DNA of 24,562 nt, taken from positions 1-24,562 of the IMG/VR virus record IMGVR_UViG_3300025630_000054. One strand, given 5' to 3'. The notes under the pieces are model-generated. The model was not told where the DNA came from. It did not search any database and was given only the letters and a program-made list of their open reading frames with translations. Positions 6,952-14,151 of the stretch are shown in pieces; position 1 is the first letter of the stretch; every line of letters starts with the position of its first letter. The position numbers and the translations under genes were made by a program. This stretch comes from a virus (Duplodnaviria; Caudoviricetes).

Positions 6952-7043
6952 CACATCCACCCCATGCTGACGGCGCCGATCCAGCCCAGCACCGACGCGG
7001 CAATCGCTGCGGCGATGATGATGTCTTGCGTCCACTTAGTCAT
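6951..7043 (-). CDS. small single-pass membrane peptide (30 aa; absent from the ORF track)
   Basis: MTKWTQDIIIAAAIAASVLGWIGAVSMGWM; ATGA overlap with the Tas-like stop and TGATG overlap with the next start. Confidence 0.6.
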   Translation of the reverse strand: MTKWTQDIIIAAAIAASVLGWIGAVSMGWM

Positions 7044-7744
7044 GCTGCTTTCCATTCTACAAATAAATCACGCACCAGCTTCTTTGTCATGTATCTCAAT
7101 GCACGATTGTGCGCGTGGCCATCGCTATCTACACGCTCGCGCTCAAGCGTTTTGCGCGTGTCATATATCCTGCGATACGGGCCAGCGTTTTCTTCTTTTC
7201 CTTGGCTCTTGAGCAGGCTGTCGCCGATCGTCCAGAATACCGAATGACGTGACGGGCTATATCCATGCGCCAATGCCATCTCCGCATTGCTGCATTTGCG
7301 CTGCCTCTGGCCATCTATCACGGCAAGCCCAGCGCGCTTATATATGCCGTCAAGCTCCTTTTCGTATTCCATAAAGTCGCCTACCTCGCCAACAATGCCC
7401 GCCAAGCCCAGATGGCCAAAGCCTTTCACCTTATCGACAAACGTTGATACTGGCAGCTCCTTTGCCAGCCCCACAAGCCACTTCTCAAACTCGGCACGGC
7501 TTTCTAAGAGCGGCTGCCTTGCCTCAAATAGTGGCTTTGTGGCGGCGTATTCATCCATTGTGCCTTCGCCCCTCTTCAGTTGGGCGAATAGCTTATTGGC
7601 TTCCTTGATGTCGCCGTCACGAAAGCTGCGGCAGATTGCTTTAATCTGCAACACCAGCTTTGCTTCAGCGCGAACCATGTTCTGCCTATTGCGCCAAGTC
7701 AGATATATCTTGGCAATGGTTGGGTCTTCGTAACGTTTATCCAT
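7040..7744 (-). CDS. tasA: IS110/Nop-domain RNA-binding protein without nuclease domain (TasA-like, 234 aa)
   Basis: Likely start ATG 7744 with AAGGAG SD. The N-terminal coiled coil (WRNRQNMVRAEAKLVLQIK) and VKGFGHLGLAGIVGEVGDF...IYKRAGL...YRRIYD...HAHNRALRYMTKKLVRDL match the IS110 C-terminal/Nop fold. No RuvC or HNH domain and no SG catalytic loop. Adjacent to a dual-spacer array. Confidence 0.8.
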   Translation of the reverse strand: MDKRYEDPTIAKIYLTWRNRQNMVRAEAKLVLQIKAICRSFRDGDIKEANKLFAQLKRGEGTMDEYAATKPLFEARQPLLESRAEFEKWLVGLAKELPVSTFVDKVKGFGHLGLAGIVGEVGDFMEYEKELDGIYKRAGLAVIDGQRQRKCSNAEMALAHGYSPSRHSVFWTIGDSLLKSQGKEENAGPYRRIYDTRKTLERERVDSDGHAHNRALRYMTKKLVRDLFVEWKAA

Positions 7745-7766
7745 AATGGATCTCCTTGTTTTATGC

Positions 7767-8197
7767 GAGGCGGAGGCAAAATGACTTTTCTGCGTAGCTT
7801 GAGTGGCCTCTGGTTGTTGGTGCGCCAGTTCTATGGCATCTCTGCGGGTTCTGATCGGCACCAAATAAAGTGGGAGCGCGGGCTTCTTGGCATTTCTGCG
7901 TAGAAAATTTGGCTCCCTGTTGTAAGGCGGGGGTGCATGATCGGTGGCATTTCTGCATGCTTTAGATGACCCCCTGTTGAATGGTTGGGAAGGGTGACGG
8001 CTAATCGGCATTGCTGCATGGTCAGTATGACCCTTCCCATTGGCGCGCTCAGTATTCGGCATAATGCGATGATCGAGTGGCACCAAAATAAGGTGGGGGC
8101 GTGGATTGCATGGCATTGCTGCGAAAACCCAATGACCCCCTGTTGTAAGGCGGGGGCGTCGCATCGTTGGCATTTCTGCGTTGGTTGACCGACCCCC
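7767..8197 (-). ncRNA. TIGR-like stem-loop guide-RNA array, 8 units each with two 9-nt spacers
   Basis: Minus-strand unit: stem-YCR-N9-YG-CAGAAATG(variants)-YCR-N9-CR-stem. All 16 spacers are exactly 9 nt and different. Outer stems differ between units but stay self-complementary. The inner hairpin is mostly GCA-GNRA-TGC. Confidence 0.88.
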
Positions 8198-8206
8198 TGT
8201 TAAACA

Positions 8207-8737
8207 TTATTCTACCAAAGCCTGCTCATACTCAGCTTTGACTTCGCTGATATTCCAAACATCTCTGACGACTTTATCATCAGTGACGCGGGCCTTGATG
8301 GCAGAATAGAAGCTGCGCTGCCCCTCATGGTGCTTGCTGCGGGATGTCTCGTGCATAATCGCCTGCTCAAGATCCTCGCTTGTTGCATCGCCCAAGCAGA
8401 TGCCGGTATTGGGCAATAGCCAACGCTCAAACATATCCTTTGCATATGCGGGTGCCATGTTTTTCAGTGACACGGCTGGCGTTGATGTCTCGCCCTTGCT
8501 CAGCACAGTTTGATGCGCTGCACGCTTAAGTCGCGCGCGGTAGCCTCTGGGCTGCGCAACAACATCCAAATATGCAATGCGCTCCAAGTGGCGGCGTGTA
8601 GCCTCTTCGCGCAAAACATCGTCTTGCTGAAGCATAACCAGATATTTCTCCGATGCTTCCTTCGCGCTAGCAGATCCCTCCCAAGCCTTTTCTACGGCCT
8701 CGGACACAATCGAAATAATATTTTCTTGCTTAGTCAT
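8207..8737 (-). CDS. uncharacterised protein upstream of the array (176 aa), candidate Tas partner
   Basis: TGATG-coupled ATG at 8737; stop lies 9 nt before the first array unit; no family recognised. Confidence 0.75.
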   Translation of the reverse strand: MTKQENIISIVSEAVEKAWEGSASAKEASEKYLVMLQQDDVLREEATRRHLERIAYLDVVAQPRGYRARLKRAAHQTVLSKGETSTPAVSLKNMAPAYAKDMFERWLLPNTGICLGDATSEDLEQAIMHETSRSKHHEGQRSFYSAIKARVTDDKVVRDVWNISEVKAEYEQALVE

Positions 8738-8886: not shown

Positions 8887-9425
8887 TTGTACACATCCGC
8901 GTTGATGCTCCACAGCACCAAGGTCGCGCGCTGCTGGCCTGCACGCTGGTTTACATGCGCTTTGCATATCTCGCCGCGTGCGTGCATGTTTTCGAGATGC
9001 TGTGATAGCTTGCGCGTCTCAACGCCAACGACCTCAGCGATGTCTGCCGTTTCGCAGTAGGTCGCCGCGTCGCTCCGCAGGAACGCAATGACCTCGCGCT
9101 GCACGGCAGGCCAATTAATCGGCTCAGGCTTCTCGGTGGGCGTTTGCACGGCCTCTGCTGGCGCGTCAGTCGCCAAGCCCAGCACGTCACGCGCTGCGCG
9201 TCGCTCCTGCACATATGCGGCGACCCACGGCGTGCGCTCGCGCTGCTCTTCCACGGCGTTCTGCACGATGATGCCGACGCAGATGTCGTCGAGGTTTGCG
9301 TGCGCCTGCTGGAGCAGACGCGGCGATATGTGGACGCTCTCGCCGTTGTCGGTGCGGACGCCAAAGCCTGTGCCGCTGTCGGTGATGTGCGTGATTAAAA
9401 ATTCATGTGTGTGCGTAAGGTTCAT
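8883..9425 (-). CDS. putative nucleic-acid-binding protein (cold-shock/OB-like N-terminus plus wHTH-like C-terminus)
   Basis: GTGFGVRTDNGESVHIS resembles CSD RNP motifs; ETADIAEVVGVETRKLSQHLENMHARGEI resembles a wHTH; GGAG SD. Confidence 0.65.
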   Translation of the reverse strand: MNLTHTHEFLITHITDSGTGFGVRTDNGESVHISPRLLQQAHANLDDICVGIIVQNAVEEQRERTPWVAAYVQERRAARDVLGLATDAPAEAVQTPTEKPEPINWPAVQREVIAFLRSDAATYCETADIAEVVGVETRKLSQHLENMHARGEICKAHVNQRAGQQRATLVLWSINADVYK

Positions 9426-9504
9426 TATGGTTTCTCCGTTTCAGTTTCGTGGCCGGTTTGGCGCACGGCAAGGCAGCGCCGCGCGGGCGCTGCTAAGCGA
9501 TGCG

Positions 9505-10074
9505 TCAATAATCTTCTCCGTTGACTGTGACTTTTGTGGGGCGCTGGATGATGGTCTGCTTGACGCCATCGCGCACGCCATGCTCTTTGACTTTGGCCGT
9601 GCAAGTTACTTGAGCGCCTTTGGCCCAATACTGCGTGCCTTTGTAGATGACAACGTTGTCATCAGCGTCACGGCAGATGTGGAGGTGTGAAATGCCATAC
9701 ATGCTTTCCAGCTCGACAATATGCTTGACTGTGAGTGCGAAGTCTTGGCGCTCGCCTACGGTGCCAACAAACTCGCACTTGCCATCTCTGGTGGCCCACT
9801 CAGCTTTTTGAGCGGCACGCTTGTCCAGCGTCTTGACCATGGCGTCACGCATGTTAGGTGTCGGCTGGCCGTATGTGTTGATGCCCTTCTTAACCGCTGA
9901 GAAAAACCCTTCGCCCTCTGGGCTGTAGTCAGCCAAGAAGTCGATAATCTCTTGGGCGCGATCATCAGACGCCAGCCAGTTTACACGATTGGCGTGGGCA
10001 GCATTTGCCAGCTTGCGGGCGCGAATTGATGGGTAGTAATTATGCTCATATTCATGCGTTGGGTCGTATGCCAT
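9505..10074 (-). CDS. hypothetical early protein (189 aa), possible C-terminal OB-like fold
   Basis: GGAGG SD before ATG 10074; first gene after an AT-rich intergenic region; beta-rich C-terminus. Confidence 0.7.
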   Translation of the reverse strand: MAYDPTHEYEHNYYPSIRARKLANAAHANRVNWLASDDRAQEIIDFLADYSPEGEGFFSAVKKGINTYGQPTPNMRDAMVKTLDKRAAQKAEWATRDGKCEFVGTVGERQDFALTVKHIVELESMYGISHLHICRDADDNVVIYKGTQYWAKGAQVTCTAKVKEHGVRDGVKQTIIQRPTKVTVNGEDY

Positions 10075-10181
10075 ATCTTCCTCCATTGCTTATATTGTTA
10101 ACATACAGTTACCACAGCATATCGCAAGCAAAAAATGCACCTGACGGAAACTTTTTTTCGCCTCTATATAAAACCGTTTAA

Positions 10182-10562
10182 ATGCAGTATGTTGCGCGCG
10201 TGGCCAACAGCATCAACGTCGGACGTGCAGGCGAGTTTCTCGTTGCAGCCGAGCTTGAGCAGCGCGGGATACGCTGCCATCGGGTAGACATGCAGGACGA
10301 TGACCTATGGGTGAAGTCGGCCAGCGGTGAGCTGTTGACGATGCAAGTGAAGGCGACCATCGAGCCGCGCGCCGATCGCAGGCGCAAACCGTGCTACATG
10401 TTCACACGCGCAAATGGCGATGCGCAAATATTTGCGTATGTGGCTCTGGATATACGATTGTTTATACTGCGCGACGCGCCGAGCGGGAAGACGGTACGCA
10501 TAAAGCCCGCCGATTTTACGCGGCAGGCTATGGATGACAGCATTAAGGCGATGCTAGGTTAG
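10182..10562 (+). CDS. PD-(D/E)XK-superfamily endonuclease-like protein
   Basis: GRAGEFLVAAEL...DDLWV...MQVKAT motif; the only plausible plus-strand gene; the start may be GTG 10200. Confidence 0.7.
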   Translation: MQYVARVANSINVGRAGEFLVAAELEQRGIRCHRVDMQDDDLWVKSASGELLTMQVKATIEPRADRRRKPCYMFTRANGDAQIFAYVALDIRLFILRDAPSGKTVRIKPADFTRQAMDDSIKAMLG

Positions 10563-11014
10563 ACCATCAGCTCAAAGTGCGGAGCGTCGATAAACGGGCG
10601 TCTGCCCTGCCCGCGACGCGTGTCGATGTAGTCGTTCATCGCGTCCTCCATCGTGCCATCCCACTGTGCTATATTTGGCACAGTCCACGCGGCACCCCAC
10701 CTGATTGGCACGTCCACCTCGCGCGCAGCTTCTGCCATTGCGTCAGCGATGTCGTCATATAGGTTAAGCTCCCACGATCCACGCGGGCCAACATAGGCCA
10801 TAAGATCGACGGCCAACCCGTCTATATGTTTCGATTTCATCGTCTGCGACGCGCCGCTTTTCACAAGCTCGCGCTGCTCCTCGATGGTGCGAAGCCCGCA
10901 GATGACGCCGAAGTCAATCTTGGTTCTGTGGATTGCGCTGGTGACGACAGCCGCCATGCGCTCGTCCACGCCTGATAGCTTATCGCGGCTGCGTGCTGAT
11001 AGTTTGAACGTCAT
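10559..11014 (-). CDS. endolysin, M15-family (L-Ala-D-Glu-type) peptidase
   Basis: GLRTIEEQ, SKHIDGLAVDL, WG..W and DAPHFEL zinc-peptidase motifs; ATGA-coupled start at 11014. Confidence 0.85.
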   Translation of the reverse strand: MTFKLSARSRDKLSGVDERMAAVVTSAIHRTKIDFGVICGLRTIEEQRELVKSGASQTMKSKHIDGLAVDLMAYVGPRGSWELNLYDDIADAMAEAAREVDVPIRWGAAWTVPNIAQWDGTMEDAMNDYIDTRRGQGRRPFIDAPHFELMV

Positions 11015-11355
11015 TTCTTCAAGCCTTTCATTGTGCGGATGCCAAAGCTGGCGGCGATGGACGCATACATGCCCCACTGCACCCAGAGCGGCGTTGTTTC
11101 AAGATTGGCGAATCCCTCTGCCATTACGTCCTGCATGGACGGCACAAAATTCATGCACAATATGGCCACGAAAACGATTGTCCACAGCTCATCCTTCCAG
11201 CTGTCTTTGCTGGCCTCGATGGCCGACTGCTCCCAATCCATCTCGCCGGTTGCCTGCTTCAGCTTGATCTCGGCATTCGCCTTCTGGATTGCCGTCTTGC
11301 CGTCGAGGTAGCTTGTGGCCAGCCCGCCTAATGCGCCTACTATCTGGCCAATCAT
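11011..11355 (-). CDS. putative holin
   Basis: Two to three hydrophobic segments, basic C-terminus, directly upstream of the endolysin. Confidence 0.6.
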   Translation of the reverse strand: MIGQIVGALGGLATSYLDGKTAIQKANAEIKLKQATGEMDWEQSAIEASKDSWKDELWTIVFVAILCMNFVPSMQDVMAEGFANLETTPLWVQWGMYASIAASFGIRTMKGLKK

Positions 11356-11540
11356 TTCTCAGACCCTAGCCACACGGCAAAAGCACCAGTCATGGCACCG
11401 GCAACAACGCTAATAAGCGCACTCTGCTGCGTGCTAAGGTCAGGCTGCGTCAGCGCCCACTCGATGCAGCGTATATACATAATCGTCATCACGGCCATCA
11501 TTAGACGCGGCATGATCTTATATTCCAAAAGCTTTTCCAT
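11352..11540 (-). CDS. small two-TM membrane protein
   Basis: Two hydrophobic helices; GAGGT SD; ATGA-coupled to the holin-like gene. Confidence 0.65.
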   Translation of the reverse strand: MEKLLEYKIMPRLMMAVMTIMYIRCIEWALTQPDLSTQQSALISVVAGAMTGAFAVWLGSEK

Positions 11541-11541
11541 C

Positions 11542-11796
11542 TTACACCTCTATGTTGATGTTTGTGCCTTGCGGCCTGTCAGCAGTGGTCTTGGTGCCAA
11601 ACCTATCATAACCCTTGCCTAAGTCCAACTTCTGCTCTCTGAGCGCCTCCAGATGCGTGTGATTGGCTCTATGCTCCTTGGCTACCCTCTGCTCCGTCAG
11701 ATGCGCTTCTATGCGCTCACGCGTCTGCGTTTGTTGGTGTATGTCCGACTGCACGTTAAACGGTGCGCTGCCTATGCCTGATACACCGTCAGCCAT
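11542..11796 (-). CDS. hypothetical protein (84 aa, MADGVS)
   Basis: TGATG-coupled start at 11796. Confidence 0.6.
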   Translation of the reverse strand: MADGVSGIGSAPFNVQSDIHQQTQTRERIEAHLTEQRVAKEHRANHTHLEALREQKLDLGKGYDRFGTKTTADRPQGTNINIEV

Positions 11797-12257
11797 CAGC
11801 GTTTCACCGCGATCCAGACAAAGCCAAACAACGCGCCCACGCAGATCAGAAACAGGAACAAGCCCGCCGCCCACGCGATGATCGTCTCCTTGCGCTCGAT
11901 GCGCTTATACATTGCGTCTTTCTGCTTCTGCCGGATGTCGTTTTCCATGCGGATCAGCTCCTGCCACGCAGACGGGCCAAGCGTTTCGCTAATCATCTTG
12001 CGCAACTCGTCGCGCATATTCTCGCGCTGCTTCTTCTGCACAAACAGATCCATCGCCTGCTGCTCGACGCTGCCGAAGCTCTGATACCATTTTGGGTTTT
12101 CTACGCGCTTCGCTGCAAAGTCGAAGTCGCTGATCGCCTTAGACCAGCGCCCCAGATCGCCAGCCATGCCTTCCAGATCACGCCCGATCTGACAGCCCTT
12201 CTTGATTGCGTTAAACGCAGCACCAGCGGCCATGATTGCGGTTGCGGGGTCTATCAT
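11796..12257 (-). CDS. hypothetical coiled-coil protein with C-terminal TM
   Basis: Helical, ending IIAWAAGLFLFLICVGALFGFVWIAVKR. Confidence 0.75.
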   Translation of the reverse strand: MIDPATAIMAAGAAFNAIKKGCQIGRDLEGMAGDLGRWSKAISDFDFAAKRVENPKWYQSFGSVEQQAMDLFVQKKQRENMRDELRKMISETLGPSAWQELIRMENDIRQKQKDAMYKRIERKETIIAWAAGLFLFLICVGALFGFVWIAVKR

Positions 12258-12430
12258 TTGGCATCTTTACCCACGTCAGCTAAACGCGGGCATCCACTAT
12301 TATACTCCACCCTTATAACATATGGGTAGTGATACCAGAAGCTTGGGTATGGGCATCTGTATATACACGCCGTGTAAAGCTGCCCGTATGCAAGCACGCC
12401 AACGGCTACGCTGGCGAGCGAGCAGATCAC
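12254..12430 (-). CDS. small Cys/Tyr-rich protein (58 aa; absent from the ORF track)
   Basis: MICSLASVAVGVLAYGQLYTACIYRCPYPSFWYHYPYVIRVEYNSGCPRLADVGKDAK fills the gap exactly, with GTGA and ATGA overlaps. Confidence 0.6.
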   Translation of the reverse strand: MICSLASVAVGVLAYGQLYTACIYRCPYPSFWYHYPYVIRVEYNSGCPRLADVGKDAK

Positions 12431-12660
12431 CGCTCCATCAGACGGTCTATTTTCTCCTCGATGCGATCAAAGCGCGCTACGATCTGCGCCATGACGGCAG
12501 TGCTGTCTGCCTTGGTGACATAATCTTTGGCCATTTCTTCGCGGGTCTTGTTCAGCAGAATATTGAGGCGCTGCATCTCGTCCACAGCGCTTTTCAACAC
12601 CCAGCCGATCAGGCCCAATCCGGCAGTAAGTGCCGCCGTCCAAAGCATGTCAGCGTCCAT
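12427..12660 (-). CDS. N-terminal TM plus coiled-coil protein
   Basis: LWTAALTAGLGLIGWVL followed by heptads ending RFDRIEEKIDRL. Confidence 0.7.
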   Translation of the reverse strand: MDADMLWTAALTAGLGLIGWVLKSAVDEMQRLNILLNKTREEMAKDYVTKADSTAVMAQIVARFDRIEEKIDRLMER

Positions 12661-12947
12661 CAGTAAGACCCCTCCCAGACGCGCATCTTGGCGAACTCGC
12701 CTGACATCATCTTACGCTTGACGACCTCTTTGGCCGCCTCCGTATCAGACCACGCCACACCGGCTTCCTTCAGCCACGCGGTAAGCACAGCGCCGTCCAG
12801 AAACCCGACAAGCCGGTTTTCGCCTGACATGCCTATGCCAGCATCTCTGGCCGCCTGCGCGTCTTTCAGAGACTGGCTGACGTCATGACGTTGTTTTATG
12901 ACCATGTGGTCATGCTCGAAGTCGATCTTTTCCGAAATCTTCGCCAT
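12660..12947 (-). CDS. hypothetical protein (95 aa)
   Basis: Coupled ORF in the post-capsid operon. Confidence 0.7.
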   Translation of the reverse strand: MAKISEKIDFEHDHMVIKQRHDVSQSLKDAQAARDAGIGMSGENRLVGFLDGAVLTAWLKEAGVAWSDTEAAKEVVKRKMMSGEFAKMRVWEGSY

Positions 12948-12950
12948 GTC

Positions 12951-13142
12951 TTATTTCTTCTTGGCGCGCTTCGTTGGTGCGGGTGCAGGCGCTGGCTCAA
13001 CGTCGCCAGTGACGATCAGTGCGTCTGGGCGAACGCGCATCAGCGTTTCAACCTCTGCGTTTGGCAGCTCGGCGTTGTCGCCTTTTACCAGCTTGCCGAT
13101 TGACGTGTGTACCTTGTGGCCTACAACTGTAACTTTTTTCAT
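12951..13142 (-). CDS. hypothetical protein (63 aa)
   Basis: GAGG SD; PAPAPAP/KRAKKK tail, common in small genes following capsid genes. Confidence 0.65.
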   Translation of the reverse strand: MKKVTVVGHKVHTSIGKLVKGDNAELPNAEVETLMRVRPDALIVTGDVEPAPAPAPTKRAKKK

Positions 13143-13160
13143 GTCGATCCCTCGTTAAGC

Positions 13161-13185
13161 AGAAGGGGCGCAAATCGCCCCTTCT
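13161..13185 (-). terminator. hairpin downstream of the major capsid gene
   Basis: AGAAGGGGCG-5 nt-CGCCCCTTCT, perfect 10-bp stem; weak U tract on the minus strand. Confidence 0.6.
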
Positions 13186-13194
13186 TGTAGTATA

Positions 13195-14151
13195 TTACGA
13201 TGTGGTGTTGTCGTAAATTGCGCCGTTGGCTTTCTCGTTTTTCGAGCAAAGCGCCAGCTCTGTTGTCACCTGACGTGTGGTGTTGTCGCCATTTTTGGCC
13301 AAGGCAACGTTTTTGGTTGGACGCAATACTGCGCATTCCCACATGTTGTCCTGCAAAATGAACACGTCACGGCTACGGTTTTCGCGTGAAGGCATGAACT
13401 GCACGGTTCCCCACGGTGTCACGTAAACTGCAAGCGATTTGACCACAGTCTCGTCACCGGCTTGCACCGCTGAGCGCTGGTTGTTGTTACCAGTGAAGCC
13501 CAGAGCAACGTTCATCTGGAAGGCTGACAGATAGCAAGTATCTGGCTTACCGCCTTCTTCCCAGATTGACTGCATAACGTCGTCAAACTTGGCCTGCGAG
13601 AATGCAGTTGGAGTGCCGTCGTCTGTACGGGCGTCTGTGCCGTCGCCGGTTGGGTTTGCACCAGAGTTACCAGACTGGAAGTTTACGTTTGTAATCAACC
13701 ATGATGGTACACCACCAGTTTTACGTGCAGCAGTTGAAGAGCCTGCAACGTTACCTTGGTTAGCAAACAACGCCTTTTCGATGTCGAGCTTTTGCTCTTT
13801 AGCGATAAGCAATGTTTGGTACGCCATTTCCTTGGCGCGGCCAGCATTGTCTACTGCTTCATCGGTATCGGAAATCACCACAGCGTTTTTAAAGATCTGT
13901 GTTCTCGCTCCGAGGCGTACAGTCGGCGTAACGGCATCGGCAGATGTCGCATCACCTTCGATGTGAGCGTTTACGGCTGACGCGCGCAACGCTTGTGTTT
14001 GCCACTCAACCAAAGTGTTGCGTGCTTTTGTTTTGCTCGACTTAGAGTAAAACGGTGTTTCAGATGGGTCTACATTGTAGATCACATCTGACAAATCTTC
14101 ACGAATGCCTACGGCATCATACGTGTCGAATGTATTGGTCGGCTGTGCCAT
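13195..14151 (-). CDS. major capsid protein (DUF5309/SU10-like)
   Basis: REDLSDVIYNVDPSETPF, EWQT, EGDA, TQIF and AKEQKLDIE motifs; follows the scaffold gene. Confidence 0.88.
   Translation of the reverse strand: MAQPTNTFDTYDAVGIREDLSDVIYNVDPSETPFYSKSSKTKARNTLVEWQTQALRASAVNAHIEGDATSADAVTPTVRLGARTQIFKNAVVISDTDEAVDNAGRAKEMAYQTLLIAKEQKLDIEKALFANQGNVAGSSTAARKTGGVPSWLITNVNFQSGNSGANPTGDGTDARTDDGTPTAFSQAKFDDVMQSIWEEGGKPDTCYLSAFQMNVALGFTGNNNQRSAVQAGDETVVKSLAVYVTPWGTVQFMPSRENRSRDVFILQDNMWECAVLRPTKNVALAKNGDNTTRQVTTELALCSKNEKANGAIYDNTTS

Follow-up and report, generated by a model that had tools for sequence, protein, structure and literature searches.

Two questions are raised by the uncharacterised gene that immediately precedes a guide array in this phage: does it belong to the TIGR-TasA system beside it, and what could its product contribute? 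The window (the whole stretch of DNA analysed, coextensive with a virus record of 24,562 nt) belongs to a tailed phage whose capsid and portal genes are of SU10 type in Pfam and PHROG searches. The 176-aa protein of the ORF at 8207-8737 (minus strand) is named X here. The following features are considered:

8207..8737, minus strand: partner gene X, 176 aa, two predicted helical domains, related to PHROG 4604
7767..8197, minus strand: stem-loop TIGR array of 8 units
7040..7741, minus strand: TasA, 233 aa, Nop domain only, with an AAGGAG ribosome-binding site upstream
8729..8737, no strand: 9-bp direct repeat (sequence repeat), copy at the start of X
7035..7043, no strand: 9-bp direct repeat (sequence repeat), copy where TasA stops and the downstream 30-aa gene starts

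X is a real gene under purifying selection. Its start overlaps the stop codon of the upstream Zn-finger gene and lies behind a GAGG element. Among 22 alleles, the variant codons are 74 synonymous vs 28 non-synonymous (pN/pS = 0.11). The stretch quoted as motif-like in an earlier note on this DNA, WLLPNTGICLGDATSEDL, is present in the translation. As that note had stated, X is co-oriented with the array and TasA, all on the minus strand, and its stop is 9 nt from the first array stem, which begins at 8197. X would be co-transcribed with the array. Contigs assembled from RNA libraries cover parts of X, the array, TasA and the flanks; such contigs cannot show transcription. The lower GC content claimed for the block was also found (52.1% vs 60.7% and 60.5% in the immediate flanks), although that of the region 9425-13200 is only 55.0%.

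The array units consist of a stem, a box C-like NCA/NCG motif, a 9-nt spacer A, a box D-like YG motif, a loop, box C, a 9-nt spacer B, box D and the stem, and this layout corresponds to the one given in the accessible part of PMC12045711. The stems are palindromic and variable in sequence, and the spacers differ among relatives. A 377-aa frame (window 7040-8173) that crosses the array and continues into TasA lacks conservation in relatives and was rejected as a candidate gene. Arrays have on average about four stops per frame, and the spacer variation, checked for codon-like periodicity, gave no clear signal. TasA matches TaTasR (9MTY) in the Nop part only (E=2e-11, aa 95-226, phmmer) and PHROG 4285 (E=1.6e-14). 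The 233-aa protein does not match the N-terminal portion of 9MTY, shows neither a RuvC nor an HNH domain at its N-terminus and has no Pfam match, and a RuvC-like DEDD catalytic domain had no Pfam match in X or TasA. The Tas-like protein thus has no detectable catalytic domain, as had been claimed.

We analysed the co-occurrence of X and TasA in loci pooled from X-based and TasA-based searches (L001-L178). In all, 124 distinct TasA loci were compared: X precedes TasA in 102, and 20 of the others end within 1,300 nt upstream. Two loci, L177 and L178, have room for X and no significant match; the upstream ORFs there overlap, rank immediately under the significant matches with E=1.6 and 5.6, and were not counted as homologs. 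TasA is present in 98 of 101 X loci, the other three being truncated, and no X locus (0/101) has room for TasA yet lacks it. In these loci homologs of X are therefore found mostly with Tas, the opposite of what would have refuted the earlier note, which had proposed this neighbourhood check. Among 31 viral loci retrieved with X as the query, TasA follows in 26 and five end within 500 nt. The order X-array-TasA and the strand are constant across loci, X always being 5' of the array and TasA. These counts are not independent, as most loci come from related marine phages and some are identical to the window; the depth across clusters is the stronger evidence. X stands beside TasA in nine clusters at 50% identity. 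When loci with a TasA of 33-57% identity were searched with a profile built from X hits only, X was recovered ahead of TasA in 10 of 12, among them those of Rhizobium phage RHph_X2_25 and of three contigs from genome bins. In one of the distant loci (L153:4248-4737) the X homolog is split over two reading frames and TasA is intact; this may be a sequencing error or decay. In RHph_X2_25 the cassette (L072:2682-6707) lies between a divergent repressor C gene and an XRE HTH gene, that is, in the immunity region of a repressor-carrying phage.

A lead to cultured phages was given by a Foldseek search of X on viral models, in which nothing was found at E<=0.001 and the ranks served as a lead only. 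Rank 2 (not significant) is a 166-aa protein of mycobacteriophage Omega, whose accession was equated with Omega gp22 from the organism and the protein length alone; for ranks 1 and 3 (172 and 190 aa), length was the only basis for equating them with Peregrin gp186 and Morrissey gp43. Omega gp22 (166 aa) is encoded upstream of gp21 (PHROG 4285) and belongs to PHROG 4604, as do Bethlehem gp73, Peregrin gp186 and Morrissey gp43. The Omega gp21-gp22 region (L185:9600-11570) contains 10 TIGR-like units around both genes. The unit pattern search in actinophages found units in Omega only; in Bethlehem, Peregrin and Morrissey hairpin units were recognised by eye. Omega gp22 matches 81 records and gp21 matches 91, many of them A1-type mycobacteriophages. 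Eight annotated phages were picked from the 91 records, and a PHROG 4604 gene lies upstream of the gp21 homolog in seven, all actinophages; one of these has a 74-aa gene between the PHROG 4604 gene and the Tas-like gene.

The proteins of the seven actinophages and the X family align in hhalign with 95% probability (E=2.9e-8, 144 columns, 9% identity). The X profile matches three of the seven (E 2e-6 to 3e-4), and five X homologs match the PHROG 4604 profile (E 3e-5 to 0.013), with no match for X itself. The single sequence of Omega gp22 gave no alignment with the X profile (0.6%). PHROG 4604 proteins thus share with X the size, the place upstream of a Tas-like gene and the profile-profile match. 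However, they are very distant in sequence, and their neighbour, the PHROG 4285 'transposase', has been read as IS110-like in the accessible text of PMC3706429. In Microcystis phage Mvi-JY20 (L259) no partner was detected upstream of the Tas-like gene. The upstream genes of this phage belong to other families without known function (PHROG 35913), possibly including a different partner.

Since its relatives keep their position in very distant phages, X is likely to be a third component, and we consider it very probable, on gene order and homology, that X is a true component of the TIGR-TasA system. In a phage cassette of three parts, namely a partner, a stem-loop guide array and a nuclease-less TasA, X would be the one always placed first. 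As judged from sequence, X, the array and TasA are a stem-loop TIGR-TasA subtype with a deeply conserved third gene. Known stem-loop systems (PlTasA, BlTasA, MbTasA; PMC12045711; 10.64898/2026.09.09.750476; 10.64898/2026.08.11.744272) also have a phage-borne Nop-only Tas adjoining hairpin units that each contain two 9-nt spacers along with box C/D-like motifs, but they are described as an array and one protein, whereas the window adds a conserved gene upstream of the array. The only partner named in the accessible part of Faure et al. (PMC12045711) is tasParB, obtained from neighbour clustering at 50% identity; such clustering would split the X family. The tasParB-tasA operons described there also have a second gene in the tasA operon, sometimes with the array between both. 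However, TasParB has a ParB/Srx-like CTPase domain and goes with dual-repeat arrays, whereas X is nearly all helical, goes with a stem-loop array and, like 27 of its homologs, has no Pfam match to ParB.

The accessible text and supplements of PMC12045711 give no partner other than TasParB; the text of figs. S13-S14, probably outside this portion, may matter. A partner gene is not mentioned in the accessible main text of Xu et al. (10.64898/2026.09.09.750476) or Guan et al. (10.64898/2026.08.11.744272). More generally, no description of an X-type partner was found in the TIGR and Omega literature searched, most subscription journals being outside its coverage. Of the suggestion that this is an undescribed three-part system, the three-part arrangement is strongly supported by the neighbourhood, and the novelty holds within this limited coverage.

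What X does was approached through its homologs and its predicted fold. Word-indexed searches found 14, then 20 close relatives, and a profile search with X gave 39 hits. We aligned 24 distant full-length homologs (18-29% identity), leaving out short fragments and three long proteins; these are sequences without genomic context, so solo copies are possible among them. LGDAT..DL is the best-conserved motif of the family, and conservation is concentrated there and at R67 and V157. Among 41 sequences no residue is invariant, and only R67, L115, A118 and V157 are conserved in at least 90%. In 49 sequences D117 is conserved in 73% and D122 in 80%, and no invariant acidic or His cluster was found. 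The net charge across the family ranges from -16 to +11. X has diverged faster than TasA (identity 51-54% vs 82%; pN/pS 0.11 vs 0.03).

The AlphaFold2 model (29 sequences; pLDDT 89, pTM 0.57) is almost all helical, in agreement with the earlier description of a helical protein with a motif-like stretch. It has three N-terminal helices, a soft linker at about aa 81-90 between the two helical domains, then a helix, a small hairpin and a 30-residue helix. In L177 (2700-3080), the long middle segment of the upstream ORF folds as RNA into several hairpins similar to guide units, and this segment sits where X has its flexible linker. No fold match of the X model was found in PDB (best Foldseek E=1.5), and a VIA fold search gave only generic helical pieces (best Z 5.7), with the N-terminal part barely covered. 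ESM Atlas returned only viral clusters without names (scores <0.9). X itself has no match in Pfam or PHROG and none to nucleases, polymerases or recombinases. No matches were found by tblastn of X against GenBank phages, or of the X homolog of L170 against plasmids; no viral contig was found with an alignment of the distant X clade as the query, and no further X in 400 genomes of the family of G001.

The N-terminal half of X matches a cellular alphaproteobacterial family present in 10 of 401 genomes of the class of G001 (E 4e-8 to 9e-4). Its members (L186-L195) are stand-alone proteins of about 130-260 aa with no assigned function. They have a three-helix N-terminal half as in X, then a Pro-rich linker and a conserved C-terminal helix; the LGDAT domain is absent and the neighbours vary. 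No Pfam family scored above the cut-off, and no Tas was found within about 1.5 kb of these genes.

Our main reading, with a probability of roughly 0.4, is that X is a non-catalytic helical cofactor of silencing by TasA and its guides. A structural cofactor is favoured because there is no catalytic signature and the helices are long. X may contact TasA, guide RNA or DNA, and it would act with the TasA-guide complex on DNA targets, stabilising or extending silencing. It is more likely to be a modulator than the sole output, because published TasA binds DNA and represses alone. Indeed, in the accessible literature stem-loop TasA binds guide-specified DNA and blocks transcription, and in E. coli TasA proteins act as transcriptional repressors with no partner (Xu et al., 10.64898/2026.09.09.750476); thus X is not needed to supply the basic output, the role that had been proposed for it. 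The cofactor would not be obligatory, as MbTasA represses and PlTasA binds DNA, with no partner described in the accessible parts of the two reports (10.64898/2026.09.09.750476; 10.64898/2026.08.11.744272). Several further observations stand against this reading: the range of net charge is ill-suited to a surface conserved for binding nucleic acids, the divergence of X is faster than that of TasA, the N-terminal half also occurs in a cellular family with no Tas within about 1.5 kb and the 24 distant homologs may include solo copies, Mvi-JY20 has a Tas-like gene and no detected partner, and Omega gp22 alone does not align.

The arrays change rapidly. There are 359 distinct units in the marine arrays and 92 in 26 loci with X and TasA genes sharing about 96% DNA identity, and among the latter loci spacer variants recur at equal array positions. 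The window and 25 sibling arrays contain position-linked spacer families with differences of few bases, and A and B spacers reassort; this suggests that spacers change in place rather than by addition at one end. Matches of the 359 units in 1.57 Mb of loci and in 0.66 Mb of 20 kin phage contigs were no more frequent than with shuffled controls. Kin- or self-targeting had no excess over shuffled or re-paired spacers in these loci and contigs, and the guides had no matches to the cassette flanks beyond chance.

The fast turnover at set positions and the constant place of X 5' of the array and TasA could be explained if X helps to cut the array transcript into guides or rewrites spacers in place. 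This is attractive because stem-loop Tas proteins have no processing loop and no adaptation gene is known, according to the accessible part of 10.64898/2026.09.09.750476. However, nothing in X supports catalysis, given no enzyme match and no invariant acidic or His cluster, and the earlier suggestion of RNA processing or spacer renewal found no catalytic motif or known fold in its favour. Moreover, stem-loop arrays are processed in E. coli, with constructs that possibly include an X-like gene (PMC12045711; 10.64898/2026.09.09.750476; accessible parts), and host or phage recombination could account for the turnover. A role in maintaining the guides therefore seems unlikely, if worth keeping in mind, and a dedicated guide-renewal (adaptation) factor rewriting spacers in place with TasA is about as unlikely.

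Aca regulators sit beside anti-CRISPR genes, and by analogy X might be an autoregulator or a temporary inhibitor of the cassette, limiting TasA or guide expression or self-targeting. X is the first gene of the unit, and the RHph_X2_25 cassette starts divergently from repressor C. There are also below-threshold matches to TetR C-terminal domains (PF17940, E=0.006, in the X family search; PF16859, E=0.003, for a cellular protein matching the N-terminal half of X) and to the LuxT domain (Z 4.8 with the X model). However, the TetR-type matches are at chance level, no HTH family matches X or its homologs, and X in the window is joined to the gene ahead of it, which leaves no intergenic space for a promoter. 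We regard this function as improbable.

The gain and loss of the cassette was analysed in 57 new loci anchored on a downstream gene, with 4 already fetched cassette-bearing loci left out. Both flanks are spanned in 48 loci: X and TasA are both present in 10, both absent in 38, and in none is there only one. X is also absent from six sibling genomes at least 90% complete. As it is absent from cassette-free siblings, X does not belong to the core genes of the phage. The two flanking genes adjoin each other in 28 of the 38 cassette-free loci, forming precise empty sites at the junction marked by the repeat copy 7035..7043, and other, unrelated sequence occurs at the same gene start in the remaining 10. 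Loci with unrelated inserts starting at the gene start of this junction include L209, L229, L234, L238, L240, L246 and L249. X does lie in a block bounded by direct repeats, as had been noted, with copies at 7035-7043 and 8729-8737, but the repeat does not look cassette-specific. A cassette-specific duplication made by a transposase was set aside because unrelated inserts use the same junction. The best interpretation of the repeat is microhomology of gene starts within a hotspot for insertion.

The precise empty sites and the bounding repeat could also indicate an RNA-guided mobility machine divided between X and TasA, X replacing the RuvC domain lost from an IS110 ancestor. Indeed, TasA shares the Nop/Tnp RNA-binding domain with IS110 bridge recombinases, whose precise presence or absence resembles that of the block, and the accessible text of Pope et al. 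(PMC3706429) describes the Omega region as a precise, IS110-like insertion accompanied by a duplication of 5 bp and notes Omega relatives without the element. On the other hand, the window genes have no RuvC-like DEDD domain, the array has multiple units and the site is open to unrelated inserts, the repeat being a shared gene start; the helical model of X differs from the alpha/beta RuvC fold; none of the 11 cassette-bearing contigs searched has a second copy of the cassette; and guides match the flanks no more than by chance. Such a machine is very improbable. The Omega element is flanked by a repeat longer than the 5 bp reported. It probably reads better as a partner-array-TasA cassette than as an IS110-like transposon. 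Finally, an independent moron-type gene merely travelling with TasA, as the hotspot and the resemblance of the N-terminal half to a stand-alone cellular family might suggest, is highly implausible given that the linkage persists through nine clusters at 50% identity and reaches actinophages whose genomic settings are unrelated, with X alone in no locus that has room for TasA.

With X as a probable component and, tentatively, a cofactor of TasA, the finding bears on questions that the accessible parts of PMC12045711 and 10.64898/2026.09.09.750476 leave open in the field: the natural role of nuclease-less TasA, the processing of stem-loop guides and the gain of spacers by TIGR arrays. Published TasA work was done without an X-type partner, and a second gene kept next to TasA in marine and soil phages of alphaproteobacterial type as well as in actinophages is an obvious candidate for the missing piece. 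If X did renew guides, it would be the missing adaptation component, and the cassette, with its two genes, would amount to a full adaptive system of RNA-guided silencing, one that cultured mycobacteriophages already carry and that was filed there as a transposon. The link to PHROG 4604 brings the system into cultured phages, Omega and many A1-type mycobacteriophages, that grow on M. smegmatis.
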